Assembly (NCBI GenBank): GCA_963797465.1
Contig: CAWCPD010000003.1
Location: 135,899-199,898 of the forward strand
Length of the DNA stretch: 64,000 bases
Source of the DNA: an uncultured Actinomycetota bacterium
GTDB lineage: Bacteria; Actinomycetota; Thermoleophilia; Gaiellales; Gaiellaceae
Direction of reading: 5' to 3'
Part shown: positions 24,346 to 45,739 of the stretch, piece by piece
How the letters are laid out: every line of letters begins with the position of its first letter
Numbering within the stretch: the first letter of the stretch is position 1
Notes under the pieces: generated by a model
Told to the model about the DNA's origin: nothing
The model's database searches: none
What the model saw: only the letters and a program-made list of their open reading frames with translations
Program-made: the position numbers and the translations under genes

Positions 24346-25593
24346 TTACATCTCGAGTGCGAGCAGGTCGTCAATGCTCTCACGGCGTCTGATCGAGCGC
24401 GCCTCGCCGTCCCGCACCAGCATCGCGGCCGGCCGCGGAACCGCGTTGTAGTTCGAGCTCATGGCGAGCGTGTAGCCGCCCGTCGCCGGGACGGCGAGGA
24501 TGTCGCCGCGGCGCGGCTCGGGGAGGTCGACGCGCTCGATCAGGAGGTCGCCCGACTCGCAGTGCTTGCCGGCGACGGCGTAGGTGCCCGCCGGGTCCTC
24601 GCCGGCGCGGTTTGCAACTAGCGCCGTGTAGCGGGCGCCGTAGAGGGCGGGGCGCGGGTTGTCGGAGATGCCGCCGTCGACGGAGACGTACGTGGTCGAA
24701 GCGGACGCGCGCTTGACCGTGCCGACGGTGTAGAGCGTGACGCCCGCGCGGGCGACGAGCGAGCGGCCCGGTTCGAGGATCACCTGAGGGCGGGGGAGGC
24801 CGTGCAGCTCGAACGTGCGCTCGAGCTCGTCGAGCAGCGCGCGGACGAACTCCTCGATCCCGAGCTGCGGATCCTCGGGCGAGGACGCCACGCCGAGCCC
24901 GCCTCCGAGGTCGATGGTGCGCGGCTCCCAGCCGGTCTCGGCGCGGGCGCGGGCGGCGAAGGTCGCGAGCCAGTCGACGGCCATCAGCGCGGCGCCGGTG
25001 TCGAAGAGCTGCGAGCCGACGTGGGCGTGGAGGCCCTCGGTCTCGGGCGCGCGGCGGATCGCCTCGAGCGCGTCGTCGGGGGGGAGGCCGAACTTCGAGC
25101 CGTGGTGGCCGGTGCGGATGTGCTCGTGCGTGTCGGCCTCGACGCCGGGCGTGACGCGGATCAGCGTGCGCGGCGCGTCGGCCGAGCGGGCGCGGTCGAT
25201 CTCCTCGAGGGAGTCGAGCACGACGAGCGCGCCGGCGTCGGCGGCGGCCCGGAGCTCTTCGTCGGACTTGTTGTTGCCATGGACGACGAGGCGGTCGCCC
25301 GCGAGGCCGGCCTGCTGGGCGAAGCGGAGCTCGCCGAGTGTCGAGACGTCGGCGCCGATCCCCTCCTCGCCGAGTAGGCGGAGCAGCGCGACGTTCGGGA
25401 ACGCCTTCGTTCCGTAGGCGATGAACGCCTCGGGCGCGGCGTCGCGGTAGGCACGTGCGCTCGCGCGGAGGGTCGCCTCGTCGTAGACGACGAGCGGGCT
25501 TCCGTGCGCCGCCACGAGGTCCGCGGCTGCGATCCCGCCGAGCACGAGCCCGCCGCTGTCGATCCGTGCCGTGTCGGGGAAGAGCTCGAGCAC
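24346..25593 (-). CDS. lysA: diaminopimelate decarboxylase
   Basis: PLP-fold motifs (AYGTKAFPN, VVHGNNKS, HVGSQ, CESGD). Start set at the in-frame GTG at 25593 (VLELFPDTARI). The longer ORF runs into the repeat region. Confidence 0.88.
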   Translation of the reverse strand: MLELFPDTARIDSGGLVLGGIAAADLVAAHGSPLVVYDEATLRASARAYRDAAPEAFIAYGTKAFPNVALLRLLGEEGIGADVSTLGELRFAQQAGLAGDRLVVHGNNKSDEELRAAADAGALVVLDSLEEIDRARSADAPRTLIRVTPGVEADTHEHIRTGHHGSKFGLPPDDALEAIRRAPETEGLHAHVGSQLFDTGAALMAVDWLATFAARARAETGWEPRTIDLGGGLGVASSPEDPQLGIEEFVRALLDELERTFELHGLPRPQVILEPGRSLVARAGVTLYTVGTVKRASASTTYVSVDGGISDNPRPALYGARYTALVANRAGEDPAGTYAVAGKHCESGDLLIERVDLPEPRRGDILAVPATGGYTLAMSSNYNAVPRPAAMLVRDGEARSIRRRESIDDLLALEM

Positions 25594-25606
25594 ACGGCGA
25601 TTCTGC

Positions 25607-25924
25607 CTGTGGACGAGAAGACACGATCTTGGCGCGGTTTCGTGACGGACACGTTGCAGTTTCGGCGGTAGGCTCGATCGCATTGGGGCGGGAGGTGGGT
25701 TACCCGAACTGCAGCCAGCCTTTCGCCGGTCAGCGCCGCGGCGCCGAGGCGGGAAGCTGTGGGCGAATCGGCAACTGCAGCCAGCCTTTCGCCGGTCAGC
25801 GCCGCGGCGCCGAGGCAGGTGGCTGTGGGCGAATCGGCGCACATCCGACACGCTTCTGTCACAGACACGTAACGATTTCGGCGGTACGCTCGACCGCATC
25901 GGGGTGGGAGGTGGGTACCCGAAC
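25607..25924. repeat. composite repeat: two ~103-nt X copies flanking a 66-bp x2 tandem repeat
   Basis: X1 25607-25709 and X3 25823-25924 (both CTGTGG...GGGAGGTGGGT(T)ACCCGAAC). Tandem units 25710-25775 and 25776-25841 (TGCAGCCAGCCTTTCGCCGGTCAGCGCCGCGGCGCCGAGGC...), differing at only a few positions. Confidence 0.9.
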
Positions 25925-26090
25925 AACAGCCCGCTCGGAGGCTTCAAGCGCCAGTCCGGGACACGGCGCAAACCGGCGGTCCCGCCCGCTGACAGCGGCG
26001 TCCGACGCCGCTACACTCCCCGGCCAGTGAACCTGCTCCTTCCGTAAGCGAGGAAGCGACCGCGGCCGCCCGCCGCGCCAGCTTCCCACG

Positions 26091-26120
26091 GCCTCTCGCA
26101 CGAGAGGCTTTTCTGTCTCT
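26091..26120 (+). promoter_or_regulatory. terminator/attenuator-like hairpin plus U-run 13 nt before the leuS ATG
   Basis: GCCTCTCG-CA-CGAGAGGC (26091-26108) followed by TTTTCTGTCTCT. There is no Shine-Dalgarno between it and ATG 26133. Confidence 0.5.
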
Positions 26121-26132
26121 AGGCCCCGAAAC

Positions 26133-28569
26133 ATGGACGCATACGACCCTCACGCAATCGAGCGCAAGTGGCAGCAGGTCTGGGACGAGGCCGGCGCCTT
26201 CATGACCCCGAATCCGGCCGATGCGGCCGCCGCCGAACAAGACAAGGCGTACGTGCTCGAGATGCTGCCGTATCCCTCGGGCGAGCTCCACATGGGCCAC
26301 GTCCTGAACTACACGCTCGGCGACGTCGTCTCGCACGTGCGCCGGCGGCGCGGCTTCTCGGTCCTGCGGCCGATGGGCTACGACGCCTTCGGCCTCCCCG
26401 CCGAGAACGCCGCGATCCGCGAGGGCGGCCATCCGCGCGAGGTGACCGAGCGCAACATCGAGGCGATCCGCGGCCAGATCAAGCGCATGGGCTGGTCGAT
26501 CGACTGGACGCGCGAGGTCTCGACGCACGATCCGGACTACTACCGCTGGACGCAGTGGCTCTTCCTCAAGCTCCACGAGGCCGGGCTCGCCTACCGCAAG
26601 GCCGCGCCGGTCAAGTGGTGCCCGAACGACCAGACCGTGCTCGCGAACGAGCAGGTGATCGACGGCCACTGCGAGCGGTGCGGCGCGGAGGTCGAGGCGC
26701 GCAACCTCGAGCAGTGGATGTTCAAGATCACCGACTACGCCGACCGCCTGCTCGACGACATGGCGATGCTCGAGTCCTGGCCGGACCGCGTGCTCACGAT
26801 GCAGCGCAACTGGATCGGCCGCTCCGAGGGCGGCGAGATCCTCTTCCGGATCGAGGAGCTGGACGAGGACGTGCCGGTGTTCACGACCCGGCCCGACACG
26901 CTGTTCGGCGCCACCTTCTTCGTGCTCGCGCCGGAGCATCCGCTGGTCGAGCGCTTCGCCGAGCGCGCCGAGAACGGCGACGAGATCCGCGCCTACGCGC
27001 GCCACGCGGCGGCCGAGAAGAGCGAGGAGCGCCTCGGGCGCGAGCAGAAGACGGGCGTCTTCACGGGCCTTACGCCGTCAACCCGGTGAACGACGCGCGG
27101 ATCCCGATCTGGGTCGCCGACTACGTGCTGATGGACTACGGCACCGGCGCGATCATGGCCGTGCCCGCGCACGACGAGCGGGACTTCGCCTTCGCCGAGA
27201 CGTTCGGACTCCCGATCGTGCACGTCGTCGTGCCCGCGGACGGCATGCCAGACGAATCCGTCGCTTACGTCGAGCACTCCGAGAACGAGGTGCTGGTCAA
27301 CTCGGGCGAGTTCACCGGCATGCCGGCCACCGAGGCGAAGCGCGCGATCGTCGACGTCGCTCGCCGCGCGCGGCCTCGGCAAGCCCGCGATCAACTACCG
27401 CCTGCGCGACTGGCTGCTCTCCCGCCAGCGCTACTGGGGCTGCCCGATCCCGATGATCCACTGCGAGCGCTGCGGGATCGTCCCCGTGCCCGAGGACGAG
27501 CTGCCGGTCCTGCTGCCCGAGGTCGACGACTTCCTGCCGAAGGGCCGCTCGCCGCTCGCGGCCGCGGAGGACTGGGTCAACGTCTCGTGCCCGTCGTGCG
27601 GCGGCGAGGCGCGCCGCGAGACCGACACGATGGACACCTTCGTCGACTCGTCCTGGTACTTCCTGCGCTACACCGATCCGCACAACGACGCAGGCGCCGT
27701 TCGATCGCGGGATGGTCGACTACTGGCTGCCGGTCAACCAGTACATCGGCGGGATCGAGCACGCGATCCTGCACCTGATGTACGCGCGCTTCTTCACGAA
27801 GGCGCTGTACGACCTCGGCATCATCGGCTTCCAGGAGCCGTTCGCGCGACTGTTCAACCAGGGGATGATCTACCGCTTCGGCGCGAAGATGTCGAAGTCG
27901 AAGGGGAACATCGTCGCGCCCGACGAGCTGCTCGAGCAGTACGGCGCCGACGCGCTGCGCCTCTACATCCTCTTCATGGGCCCGGCCGACCAGGACAAGG
28001 AGTGGCAGGACACGGGCGTCGAGGGCACGTCCCGCTTCCTGCACCGGCTCTGGCGTGTCGTCAGCGAGGAGCTCGAGCGCGAGCCGACCGGCGTCACGAC
28101 CGGCACGCCGCTCGCGCGCAAGGCGCACGAGACGATCGCGAAGGTGACCGACGACATCGAGCGCCGGTTCGTCTTCAACACGCCGGTCGCGGCGGTGATG
28201 GAGCTCGTGAACGAGCTGTCGAAGGCGCCCGACGACCCGGCGTCGCGGTTCGCGGCCGAGACGGCGGTGTCGCTGATCCAGCCGTACGCGCCGCACGTCG
28301 CCGAGGAGCTGTGGTCGGCGCTCGGCCACTCGCGCCTGTGGGCCGAGCCGTGGCCGGTCGCCGACGAGTCGCAGCTCGAGCGCGACGAGATCGAGCTCGT
28401 CGTGCAGGTGAACGGCAAGGTCCGCGACCGGATCCGGGCGGCCGCCGGCCTGCCCGAGGAGGAGCTGATCGCGGTCGCGAAGGCCTCCGAGAAGGTGCAG
28501 GCGCACCTCAACGGGCGCGAGCCGCGCGCCTTCGTCGTGCCGGACAAGCTCGTCAACTTCGTCGTCTAG
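26133..28569 (+). pseudogene. leuS: leucine--tRNA ligase, three frame disruptions (~27069, ~27357, ~27690)
   Basis: [58 protein letters not shown] and KMSKSKGN motifs lie in four successive ORF-track frames (26133.., 26168.., 27453.., 27712..28569). Confidence 0.9.
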
Positions 28570-28571
28570 CC

Positions 28572-28737
28572 GATGATCGATTCCGAAGTCACGTGCCGGC
28601 GGGGAGGGCATGCACCAAGCAGCGGGGTCGACTCGTCGGGTGCCAAGGCTGGACGCCTTCGTGCCGGACGAGGCGGGCGCGATGCGCCGCGTGCAGGGCC
28701 CCCATCCGGGAGTGCGATGACGTTGGAATCGATCATC
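28572..28737. repeat. 166-bp element bounded by perfect 13-bp inverted repeats
   Basis: GATGATCGATTCC (28572-28584) and GGAATCGATCATC (28725-28737). The arms are AT-richer than the surroundings. Begins 3 nt after the leuS stop. Confidence 0.8.
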
Positions 28738-28921
28738 TAGGCGCGCGGCCGTCGGGTCGCTCGACCGGCGCCCCCGTGAGACACGTTCCGCCGCGGCCGA
28801 AGTCCAGGACGAGGGAACGCGAGGCGGTGGGCACACGGGCGCAGACGCGCCTGGCCGGTCGGGCGCGAGCGAGACGTCGACCGTCCGGGGTGGGCGCTGA
28901 GCCGGTGGACCTGCTGTGGAT

Positions 28922-28965
28922 GAATCGTCACGCTCTCGGCACGCCTCCGTCACAGACACGTCACA
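28922..28965 (+). repeat. array of 11-bp-phased hexamers (copy C)
   Basis: GTCACG@28927, GGCACG@28938, GTCACA@28949, GTCACA@28960. Ends 23 nt before the comEA ATG. Confidence 0.85.
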
Positions 28966-28987
28966 CCTTTCCCGGCAGGCTGGGCAG

Positions 28988-29572
28988 ATGCCGACCTTCA
29001 CGCTCTCCCGCCGGCACGCGCTGCTCGCTGTCGTGTGCGTTCTCGTGGTGCTGCTGGCCGCGTCGCGGCTCGTCTCCGCGCCGCGCTCGGTCGCGCCCAC
29101 CGAGGCGAGCCCGCTCGTAGCGGCGCCTGCGGTGTCTCCGCCCGCGCCGAGCACGGTCGCAGTTGACGTCGAGGGAGCGGTGCGGCGGCCGGGTCTCTAC
29201 CACCTCCCGGCGGACGCGCGGATCGCCGACGCGATCGCGCGTGCCGGCGGCACGACCCGCCGTGCCGACAAGACGCTGGTCAACCTTGCGGCCCCACTCG
29301 CTGACGGGGAACAGGTGCTCGTTCCCCGGCTCGGGCTCGGCGGTGCCTCCGCGGCCGGAGCGTCGGGCCCGTCGCCGACCGCGCCGGTAGACCTGAACTC
29401 GGCCACGGTCCAGCAGCTCGACACGCTGCCCGGCGTCGGCCCGGTGACGGCGCAGAAGATCGTCGACTACCGCCGCGTGCATGGGCCGTTCACGTCGGTT
29501 GACCAGCTCGACGCGATCTCGGGAATCGGGCCCACGCGCATCGAGAACCTCCGCGCGCACGTGGTTCCATGA
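28988..29572 (+). CDS. comEA: competence protein ComEA (SLBB + helix-hairpin-helix DNA-binding)
   Basis: ATG 28988, N-terminal TM segment. C-terminal [19 protein letters not shown]...[12 protein letters not shown] HhH repeats. Confidence 0.85.
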
Positions 29573-34072: not shown

Positions 34073-34284
34073 TTTCGGGGAACGACCTCGAACGGACGCG
34101 CGGTGCTCCCGAGTCCCGCGCTCGCCGCCGGTCGAACGACGCGAACGGATCGACCTCATCCGTCCACGAGTCCCGAGACGGCCGAACCGCCCATGTCCAA
34201 ACCGGCCAGGATTCGCGCAGTCCCCCGCCCTTCTGGGTGGGGGCCGACCCGGCCGCCCTCGGCGGCTGACGATACCGGGGAAGC

Positions 34285-34323
34285 GCGCACGTGTCCGTGA
34301 CGAAAGCGTGCCGATTGTGGAAC
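34285..34323 (-). repeat. array of 11-bp-phased hexamers (copy D, reverse orientation)
   Basis: Plus-strand GCGCAC@34285, CGTGAC@34296, CGTGCC@34307, TGGAAC@34318. The reverse complement matches the GTCACG/GGCACG units of the other copies. Confidence 0.8.
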
Positions 34324-38518: not shown

Positions 38519-39648
38519 GTGACGGCGCACGCATCTGTACGTCCACCTGCCGTTCTGCGCGCACCGCTGCGGCTACTGCGACTTCGTCACCGCGGTCGGG
38601 CGGCAGCGGCGAGCACTCGCGCTACGTCGACGCGCTGATCGCGGAGCTCGAGCTGGAGCGGGGCTCGCTCGCGCCGCGGCTCGAGACGATCTTCCTCGGC
38701 GGCGGCACGCCGACCTTCACCGAGCCGGCCGCGCTCGAGCGGCTGCTCGCCGCGCTGCCGGACGCCGACGAGGTGACGGTCGAGGCGAACCCCGAGACGG
38801 TCACGTCCGAACTGGCCAGGCTTCTGCAACGAAACCGTGTCAACCGTGTGTCAATAGGCGCACAAAGCTTCCACATGCACCTTCTGGACGTGTTGGAGCG
38901 GAGCGCGCGGCCGCAAGATGTTCGGCGTGCCGTTCACGTCCTCCGCGATGCGGGCTTCGACAACCTCTCGCTCGATCTCATCTACGGGATCCCGGGCCAG
39001 AGCGCCTCCGACCTCGCAGCGCGACCTCGCCGAGGCCCTGGCGCTCGAGCCCGAGCACCTCTCCGCGTACGAGCTGGAGGCGAAGCCGGGCACGCGCTTC
39101 ACGCACGCGCACGGCGCCGAGCTGGAACGCCAGGCCGAGTCGATGGAGTCCTACTTCGAGCTCGTCGTCGAGACGCTGACGGCGGCCGGCTATCGCTGGT
39201 ACGAGACGGCGAACTTCTGCCGGACGCCCGGGCGACGTCGACGGCGCCGCCGACGGGCGCGACCTGCGCTCGCGCCACAACCTCGGCTACTGGCTCGGGC
39301 ACGACTACCTCGGCGTCGGCGTGGGCGCGGTCAGCACAATCGAGAATCGGCGCTGGCGGAACGCCCCTTCGATCCGCCGCTACGTCGCCGCGCTCGAGGC
39401 GGGCCGATCGCCCGCCGCGCGAGCTCGAGGAGCTCTCGCCGGCGACGCGCGAGACGGAGCGCGTGATGCTGGGCCTGCGCCTCGACGAGCCCGTCGAGCT
39501 CGCCGGCCTCGAGGAGCATCCTCGACGCAGCGCGAGCTCGGGCGGCTCGAGCGGCTCGGCCTCGCGGAGCGCCGACGGGGACGGGCTGGCGCTGACGGCG
39601 CGCGGGCGCTTCCTCGGCGACGCCGTCACGGCGGCGTTGCTCGCCTGA
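38519..39648 (+). pseudogene. hemW: radical SAM haem chaperone HemW (HemN-like), at least 6 frame disruptions
   Basis: LYVHLPFCAHRCGYCDF, IFLGGGTPT, NRVSIGAQSF, IYGIPGQS and LSAYELEAKPGTRF are spread over several frames. Position after lepA is conserved. Confidence 0.8.
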
Positions 39649-42782: not shown

Positions 42783-42808
42783 GGAGACCTCGCGCCTGTT
42801 GAAGAGAA

Positions 42809-42847
42809 GTCACCGAATCGGCACGAAGGCGGCACGGTTCGGTGACG
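42809..42847 (+). repeat. array of 11-bp-phased hexamers (copy H)
   Basis: GTCACC@42809, GGCACG@42820, GGCACG@42831, GTGACG@42842. The outer units also form the inverted repeat GTCACCGAA/TTCGGTGAC. Confidence 0.8.
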
Positions 42848-42866
42848 CCTGAGTCGATAGCGTGTT

Positions 42867-45484: not shown

Positions 45485-45689
45485 CCGCCGGCACGACCAG
45501 TTGCCGACTGGACGGACTCTCCCGATCGATGTCGTTCGAGCCGAGCCGGGTGCGGACGGCGGCTGTGCCGAGCTCGGCGAAACCGGCGTGCGCGCCGGCG
45601 TGGCTCCTCGCCTCCGCGCGTCCCCCACCGTTTCCCCACGTACCCCCAGGGGGGCGGGCGGCCCCCTGTATTCACGCTAGCGAGGATTC

Positions 45690-45739
45690 TGTGACGTGTC
45701 CGTGGCGGATGTGTGCCAACTCTGCGACGAATGCGTGCC
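45690..45739 (-). repeat. array of 11-bp-phased hexamers (copy E, reverse orientation)
   Basis: Plus-strand TGTGAC@45690, CGTGGC@45701, TGTGCC@45712, TGCGAC@45723, CGTGCC@45734. Confidence 0.85.

Follow-up and report, generated by a model that had tools for sequence, protein, structure and literature searches.

Two adjacent copies of a probable mobile promoter-leader cassette and a local tandem duplication in the lysA-leuS spacer of a Gaiellaceae genome

The spacer between the divergent lysA and leuS genes of this Gaiellaceae genome contains a composite repeat, which probably consists of two adjacent members (X1 and X3) of a dispersed, spreading family of promoter-leader cassettes together with a 66-bp tandem of local origin. 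The repeated element, called X here, most likely belongs with the "putative mobile promoters", as a promoter/leader cassette that propagates itself; its promoter activity and its route of spread are both deduced from sequence. No paper describing this cassette was found. The locus contributes a tandem, partly duplicated pair, the likely source lineage of the family's newest copies, and, through matched filled and empty sites, a picture of recent spread into operon junctions.

Layout and history of the lysA-leuS spacer

The window analyzed is a 64,000-nt stretch of the genome, and coordinates given without a contig refer to it. Read directly from the sequence, a 540-bp spacer divides lysA, on the minus strand, from leuS, on the plus strand with its ATG at 26133. 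The lysA coding sequence (diaminopimelate decarboxylase; 24346..25593, minus strand, start GTG 25593) has the Pfam domains Orn_Arg_deC_N and Orn_DAP_Arg_deC, and 80 relatives match the 415-aa LysA from residue 1, that is, from the GVG start onward. The longer open reading frame that crosses the repeat (24346..25971, 541 aa) is LysA only in its last 415 residues, with the LysA domains starting at residue 167; since relatives align from GTG 25593 downstream, its upstream part is spurious, as the earlier note had stated. The gene is seemingly leaderless. A predicted -10 box, CAGAAT (25600..25605, minus strand), lies 6 nt before the GTG. The sequence upstream of lysA was inspected in nine relatives, and each retains this box (CGATTCTGCC) whether it carries a cassette or not.

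At the other end of the spacer, a promoter scan placed the gene's own leuS promoter outside the repeat (CTGACA, 17 bp, TACACT; 25989..26017, plus strand), and its -10 region, gcTACACT or TAGACT, is retained in all relatives with leuS at this place. A conserved leader follows (26018..26132, plus strand), with a terminator-like hairpin at 26090-26109 and then TTTTCTGTCTC, ahead of a coding region with leuS Pfam matches. About 95 nt of this leader can form alternative CTTCC/GGAAG/GCTTCC pairings, and the T-run of the terminator-like hairpin ends 13 nt before the ATG. The leader is nearly base-for-base identical in at least six related genomes and has no Rfam match; from its sequence, the promoter and leader together (25989-26132) have the appearance of an attenuator, so far undescribed, for a tRNA synthetase gene. 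Within the gene (26133-29120), the Pfam tRNA-synt_1 and editing domains continue in a second frame, and contig C2 has a soxB-like gene that is likewise broken up, which fits single-base indel errors of long-read assembly that would explain the genome's 68% completeness.

Between these two promoters, all repeat features lie on the plus strand. X1 (25607..25709) is the resident cassette, orthologous to the single X of three relatives (G107, G125 and L009), and is made up of an 11-bp phased array (25607-25651), a predicted promoter and a G-box. Its predicted -35 box is CGGACA (25646-25651) and its predicted -10 box TAGGCT (25669-25674) after a 17-bp spacer; the transcript is predicted to start near 25681-25682, and the G-box GGGGCGGGAGGTGGG (25685-25699) leads into the CCCGAAC with which X1 ends. 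Tandem unit 1 (25707..25772) joins the last 3 nt of X1 to a 47-nt segment, T, containing an 18-nt palindrome TCAGCGCCGCGGCGCCGA (25730-25747), and to an orphan X head, CTGTGGGCGAATCGGC (25757-25772). Tandem unit 2 (25773..25838), with its palindrome at 25796-25813, is 95% identical to unit 1, and its last 16 nt are the same head CTGTGGGCGAATCGGC (25823-25838), here belonging to the second cassette copy, X3 (25823..25924). X3 has a predicted -35 box CAGACA (25862-25867), a predicted -10 box TACGCT (25885-25890), a predicted transcript start near 25897-25898 and the G-box GGGGTGGGAGGTGGG (25901-25915). In the tail that follows (25925..25988), AACAACAGCCCGCTCGGAGG resembles the genus-wide tail GAAAACTGACAGCYCGGARG.

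The repeat search recovered the 66-nt tandem at 95% identity, and Tandem Repeats Finder scored it at 243, with period 66 and 2.0 copies. The three differences between the units are clustered (GCGGGAAGC versus GCAGGTGGC). The earlier note had delimited the same pair 3 nt out of phase with this reading, and its description of units joining a 47-nt segment to the start of X holds, each unit ending with the first 16-19 nt of X. X1 and X3, described there as copies of one element, pair in two blocks in the repeat search (25635-25700 with 25851-25916, 80%; 25698-25719 with 25913-25934, 82%), match at a BLAST E of 3.6e-13 against the whole genome and are 79% identical globally. A phased array within the copies, likewise claimed, shows up when the copies are compared with themselves: over X1, X3 and six further copies the mean self-match was 0.38 at a lag of 11 nt and 0.35 at one of 22 nt, versus 0.25 (sd 0.06) in shuffles. 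The region was correctly set apart from CRISPR: such an array would need at least three near-identical short repeats, regularly spaced by unique spacers of similar length, and only two 66-bp units, head to tail, and two X copies of about 103 nt, 79% identical, are present. The 66-bp unit occurs at a single locus in the genome, and only X is dispersed; searches for T, here and in 141 genomes of the genus, returned only short, GC-rich chance matches and no homolog.

The divergent lysA-leuS pair is conserved in relatives, and the comparison of repeat copy number that had been proposed for strains or long reads was run on their assemblies. In the shortest spacer (L014, about 150 nt) nothing is present except the lysA CAGAAT, 6 nt from the start codon, and the leuS promoter (gcTACACT) followed by a terminator leader of about 95 nt, and these two elements are common to all relatives with the lysA-leuS arrangement. 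G107, G125 and L009 keep one X at the site, directly beside the lysA -10 box, without the tandem, T or X3, and three other genomes (L013, L015, L023) have a third cassette subtype at exactly the position of X1. X1 is 92% identical to the X of G107, with which it shares a peculiar head, GACGAGAAGACACGAT, while X3 is 81-87% identical to copies elsewhere in the genome versus 79% to X1. The sequence following X3 (..GTCCGGGACA..GCTGACAGCG) is orthologous to that following the single X in G107, and its GTCCGGGACA part is found in G125 as well. Judged by these alignments, X1 is an old resident, and X3 and T are specific to this lineage.

Because X1 is closer to the X of G107 than to X3 and because relatives have a single X, the composite would have been built in at least two steps. 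In the first, a second family member and the unique T segment would have been added beside the resident X1; in the second, either afterwards or in the same event, 66 bp would have been duplicated in tandem over the junction of T and the X3 head. About 250 nt (T, the duplicate of T plus X head, X3 and its 30-nt tail) would thus have been gained inside the tail of the resident cassette. The recent unequal recombination or slippage suggested earlier suits the 66-bp tandem, which has the look of a local product. It does not suit X1 and X3 as a locally made pair, as X is dispersed in 10 genomic copies and genus-wide, X1 is closer to G107 (92%) than to X3 (79%), and X3 is closer to copies elsewhere.

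A dispersed family with filled and empty sites

The genome searched comprises 3.8 Mb in 3 contigs, with 70.8% GC and a completeness rated at 68%; its LysA relatives place this metagenome assembly of an uncultured soil actinobacterium in the Gaiellaceae (Thermoleophilia). It contains 10 copies of X, 76-96% identical across about 105 nt and all with the invariant core TAGGCTCGATCGCATCGGGGCGGGAGGTGGGTAACCCGA, and matches to the core were found in 30 of 141 same-genus genomes, several of which have at least six. With flanking genes identified by Pfam, X was found in reversed orientation between purL and purF (C1:2732580), trpD and trpC (C1:888171), and hisG and hisD (C1:1401464), and in forward orientation between FAH and a soxB-like gene (C2:96789) and between mqnE and mqnA (C1:2231476). 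Three sites on contig C2 lie between hydantoinase A/B genes, and the site in the window holds X1 to X3 between the diverging lysA and leuS. The hydantoinase (hyu) copies adjoin paralogous genes; the remaining copies do not. At six of the nine loci here, and at about 40% of loci elsewhere, no gene lies downstream in the direction of X, which opposes its operon. Such an orientation is odd for a simple promoter.

Several insertion sites could be compared with the corresponding sites in the closest genomes, where flanks are 85-92% identical. The hisG|hisD spacer is about 288 nt here versus 2-6 nt in relatives (TGA, 4 nt, GTG), with a duplicated junction ATGAGC; the trpD|trpC spacer is about 311 nt versus an ATGA overlap, with a duplicated junction (A)TGA; and the hyuA|hyuB spacer (C2:82549) is 261 nt versus 2 nt, with a duplicated junction GTGRCTRA. 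The purL|purF spacer measures 252 nt versus 68 nt in relatives, and the FAH|soxB spacer 187 nt versus 77 nt. Aside from these aligned empty sites, absence of a copy means that it was not found in the assemblies searched, several of which are of low completeness. Among the matches seen, G107 has the lysA and mqnA copies only and G125 the lysA copy only, both assemblies being incomplete.

The six newest copies are 89-96% identical to one another and have a core of the lysA type; they carry exactly the -10-to-G-box core of the lysA-leuS copy, which in its sequence is the likely source lineage for them. Five of the six oppose their operon. The inserts have in common only about 120 nt, namely X and part of the hairpin that follows. 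The 55-100-nt arms that flank X in the his, trp and hyu inserts had no homologs in the genome, in the genus, in each other or in the local flanks, and these unique filler arms rule out both a longer common element and a local duplication of gene ends. The hisG|hisD copy has an additional local tandem of its tail, with a period of about 49 nt, suggesting that small tandem duplications recur at cassette edges. In the copies inspected, no terminal inverted repeats beyond CTGT/ACAG and no target duplication of fixed length were seen, and no transposase was linked to any of them.

Promoter, leader and G-box of the cassette

An information profile was built from an alignment of 79 distinct X instances, drawn from this genome and from about 30 others of the genus. 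From 5' to 3' it runs from a head, (C)TGTGGAC(A/G)A, through phased repeats of the TCGTCAC/GGCAC type to nGACA, a 17-bp spacer, TAGSCT, CGACGGCAT, the invariant GGGGCGGGAGGTGGG, 0-3 nt and CCCG. The blocks of highest conservation in these instances are the G-box and the -10 box TAGSCT, which is invariant there, and the spacer between -35 and -10 is constantly 17 bp. One large subfamily in other genomes has CCCGCG in place of the -35 GACA, implying that the -35 box is not essential or that an activator is needed. A generic sigma-70 scan misses the promoter, TAGGCT agreeing with TATAAT at 3 of 6 positions.

Sibling cassettes that lack the G-box have an ATG or GTG 6-7 nt past the -10 box, at comEA in this window (28911-28981) and in L093 and L098. 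These leaderless siblings fix the direction of transcription (plus) and its likely start, and the profile built from X matches the comEA cassette at E = 4e-11. X also lies upstream of mqnA, in sense orientation and at an orthologous site, in at least nine genomes, and because of this placement X at mqnA is, to judge from its sequence context, a real promoter plus 5'-UTR. The regulatory nature of the spacer, as proposed earlier, is supported.

In the proposed mechanism, about four 11-bp-phased repeats of the TCGTCAC/GGCAC type, from CTGTGGAC on, would form the presumed docking site of a regulator; as 11-bp direct repeats they resemble, in sequence only, the array of an OmpR/PhoB-type promoter. 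A sigma-A-type promoter (nGACA, 17 bp, TAGSCT) would start RNA about 7 nt past the -10 box, and this would put the G-box GGGGCGGGAGGUGGG and then CCCG near the RNA 5' end. Both X1 and X3 would fire rightwards, toward leuS and away from lysA, and leuS would keep its own promoter and attenuator-like leader alongside the X promoters. lysA and leuS would then share one crowded control region with three predicted rightward promoters in tandem.

The 3' end of the 16S rRNA in this genome is GGAUCACCUCCUUUCU, and in an alignment made by hand GGGAGGUGG pairs with the 16S 3' end CACCUCCUU over 9 bp, two of them G-U, so that the G-box can pair, as predicted from sequence, more strongly than ordinary Shine-Dalgarno (SD) sites. 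No ATG, GTG or TTG was present 5-10 nt downstream of the G-box in the instances examined. The 5' part of the G-box is invariant and the sequence beyond it varies; one orthologous copy, in L096, has GGGTGGTGGG, in which the SD match is broken and the G runs are retained, and this variant argues against a strict SD requirement. In the cry3A mRNA of B. thuringiensis, a perfect SD-like sequence, termed STAB-SD, lies near the 5' end and distant from the start codon, and ribosome binding that leads to no productive translation can stabilize an mRNA (Agaisse and Lereclus, 1996, as related in PMC7509114). The G-box likewise is SD-like, lies close to the predicted 5' end and has no start codon within initiation distance or anywhere near, which are the sequence features of a STAB-SD as PMC7509114 presents it. 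In contrast to the STAB-SD, which in that account is a single-gene, experimentally demonstrated Firmicute element, the G-box is longer, rich in G runs, carried by a multi-copy cassette of an actinobacterium and predicted from sequence. The favored reading, reached by analogy, is that the G-box may be a ribosome-docking 5' stabilizer or standby site of the STAB-SD type; as an SD-like dock without a start codon it would act at the 5' end of the leader, and in copies without a gene it would form the head of a short orphan RNA. An invariant and very strong SD-like box at predicted transcript 5' ends, in an actinobacterial group rich in leaderless genes, would make it a candidate for ribosome-mediated RNA stabilization beyond the Firmicutes.

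Several other candidate functions of the leader were set aside. A conserved RNA fold was rejected because minimum-free-energy folds were inconsistent, both for the 10 copies of this genome and for the 79 instances, with the G runs pairing with CCC(G) in several registers; covariation could not be scored because the 5' side of the leader is invariant. Small ORFs were rejected as well, since 33-nt ATC/ATT...TGA frames occur in two variants, the G-box is read in differing frames and the D-loop ATG is unconserved. A canonical G-quadruplex does not fit, the third G run having two Gs only and allowing a two-layer quadruplex at best, and PafBC/RecA-NDp-like, IdeR and LexA boxes, judged by eye, mismatch in spacing or sequence.

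Alternative readings and related elements

It is tentatively suggested, as a possibility more doubtful than the composite itself, that X represents a new kind of mobile regulatory element. This would be a cassette of about 120 nt without a transposase, in which a complete, regulated promoter is joined to a leader for ribosome docking, copying itself, mostly in antisense, into start/stop overlaps (hisG|hisD, trpD|trpC, hyuA|hyuB), with junction duplications of variable length and unique arms, thereby uncoupling genes and rewiring amino-acid and purine biosynthesis in one species-level lineage. If so, the downstream gene of an operon would have been placed beside a regulator-binding array in a single species-level lineage. 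The family offers an unusually clean case of promoter reuse, with a readable anatomy, a probable resident source lineage, a recent burst of copies at 89-96% identity, matched empty sites and insertions lying exactly at operon junctions.

It is unlikely that X is chiefly a family of small-RNA genes, in which an RNA of 70-90 nt, its G-rich seed at the 5' end and a variable hairpin (D, or after X1 the T palindrome) as its terminus, would act in trans on C-rich targets or the ribosome and the copies upstream of genes would be secondary. The many copies without a downstream gene are consistent with such a family, as are the invariant 5' G-box, which is what a seed would lead one to expect, and the GC-rich hairpin that follows the G-box in most copies, with compensating stems (CCAGA/TCTGG, CCGAA/TTCGG, GTCCG/CGGAC) and, in other genomes, long GGCGGGCGGC/GCCGCCCGCC stems. 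However, orthologous mqnA copies enter the gene directly and hairpin-free, for example in L116. A defined 3' end, a U-tract or a conserved length was not seen, and Rfam 15 gave no family match: neither 25000-26600, scanned to E = 10, nor 15 family loci, scanned to E = 0.1, returned a meaningful hit. The genome, rated 68% complete, also yielded no C-rich partner of the 6C RNA kind in a search of limited power.

The preference of the array for the start of the neighboring gene could point instead to a protein-binding module acting at the DNA level, with array and G-box serving as operators for the gene on the array side (lysA, hisD, trpC, purF) and each insertion recruiting that gene to a regulon. 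The array side does face the start of the next gene at lysA and in five of the six newest insertions, and it adjoins the lysA -10 box in four genomes. Read on the opposite strand, the array head TGTGGAC(A/G)A gives the actinobacterial DnaA box TTGTCCACA, whose reverse complement, TGTGGACAA, is exact in many copies of other genomes, a likeness of sequence only; similar boxes are clustered beside dnaB on contig C2. Operators of this kind nevertheless appear decidedly unlikely. Array and neighboring start codon are as little as 13 and as much as more than 150 nt apart, separated by arms that are unrelated to one another, leaving no fixed promoter geometry; the box is not universal, being TGTGGGCGA in X3 and CTCTTGACG in C2:89448; and, as the leaderless siblings show, the cassette itself reads in the plus direction.

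The mobility of X might also be that of a classical non-autonomous transposon (MITE, REP/REPIN or derived from IS200/IS605), moved by a transposase in trans and with an incidental promoter. Five sites differ in presence or absence between close genomes, copy number in the genus goes from 0 to more than 6, many copies have CTGT...ACAG termini, and the junction is duplicated at the three sites described above. Yet these duplications, of 3-9 nt, coincide with start/stop overlaps that selection alone would preserve, the inverted repeats do not extend beyond 4 nt, the shared unit of about 120 nt sits in unique arms that match nothing, and the inspected copies have no linked transposase, all of which makes a transposon of this kind highly unlikely. 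Finally, an artefact of error-prone long-read metagenome assembly, affecting the whole composite or at minimum the 66-bp tandem, is very improbable: many single-base frameshifts (leuS lies over several frames and soxB is split) and a completeness of 68% for a 3-contig, 3.8-Mb assembly do indicate errors, but errors of this sort are single-base indels rather than duplications of 66 or 216 bp, three clustered differences distinguish the units and about 20% of positions distinguish X1 from X3, unlike a collapsed or stuttered repeat, and the hisG|hisD copy too has a local tail tandem of about 49 nt.

The cassette can be set beside known dispersed elements. Putative mobile promoters (PMPs) are described as sequences at least 80% similar over at least 50 nt that front unrelated genes within or between related genomes, with no recognized mobile-element features, no Rfam match and a mechanism of movement given as unknown, and promoter reuse is thought there to be a fast route to rewired bacterial gene control (Matus-Garcia, Nijveen and van Passel, 2012; PMC3575422). 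X likewise lies, in copies 76-96% identical over about 105 nt within one genome, next to non-paralogous genes (lysA/leuS, hisD, trpC, purF, mqnA and a soxB-like gene), and the PMP class, as set out in that paper, is its best match in kind. PMPs as defined there are a statistical class located at -150 to -50 from start codons (PMC3575422), while X has a readable layout (array, -35, -10, G-box leader), runs against the flanking genes in many copies, and has demonstrated filled and empty sites between close genomes. X also resembles Correia elements of Neisseria, ERIC and REP/REPIN sequences, all named in the same paper (PMC3575422), which are short intergenic repeats present in tens of copies, inserted within operons and able to carry outward promoters. 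X showed neither the long terminal inverted repeats and target duplications of fixed size that mark Correia and ERIC elements, nor the hairpin-doublet form of REPINs, which RAYT transposases mobilize. Among actinobacteria, MIRUs (mycobacterial interspersed repetitive units) are repeats of 40-100 bp between operon genes, often at start/stop overlaps and prone to tandem changes in copy number. A MIRU follows the direction of its operon and contains a small coupling ORF but no promoter, in contrast to X, which is mostly antisense and without a conserved ORF.

Further cassettes and motifs were observed around the family. A 7-8-codon ORF (ATG AAT ...) lies between X and mqnA in L091, L092 and L096, its TGA overlapping the mqnA GTG (GTGA); it is missing from other orthologous copies. 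A second subtype in this genome combines the head CTGTGGACGAAT and an array like that of X with a leader GGGTGGCGGGTGG..CCCCACCC..GGGTGGGG, and is found at C1:522520(+), 2960225(+), 2267059(-) and 2263835(-) and at C2:169200(+). Its three G/C leader segments could pair in two alternative ways, several of its copies have no downstream gene, and it has no Rfam match. The third subtype, with a leader TAGCGTTCCAGAAGGGG-loop-CCCCCC (AGGGGCCCGTGAGCCCCTTGGGGGC in relatives), is present at C1:2371719(-), 1296755(-, upstream of aroA) and 231735(-), in addition to its place upstream of lysA in L013, L015 and L023. Beside a dnaB-like helicase gene of this genome, C2:3600-3850 contains a cluster of TGTGGAC / TTTTCCACA boxes that are DnaA-box-like. 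Within the window, weak matches to the array/promoter profile (E 2e-5 to 4e-3) occur at 38777-38863(-), 34273-34323(-), 45677-45732(-) and 42790-42860(+), and by their sequence these are probably further members of a wider cassette family.
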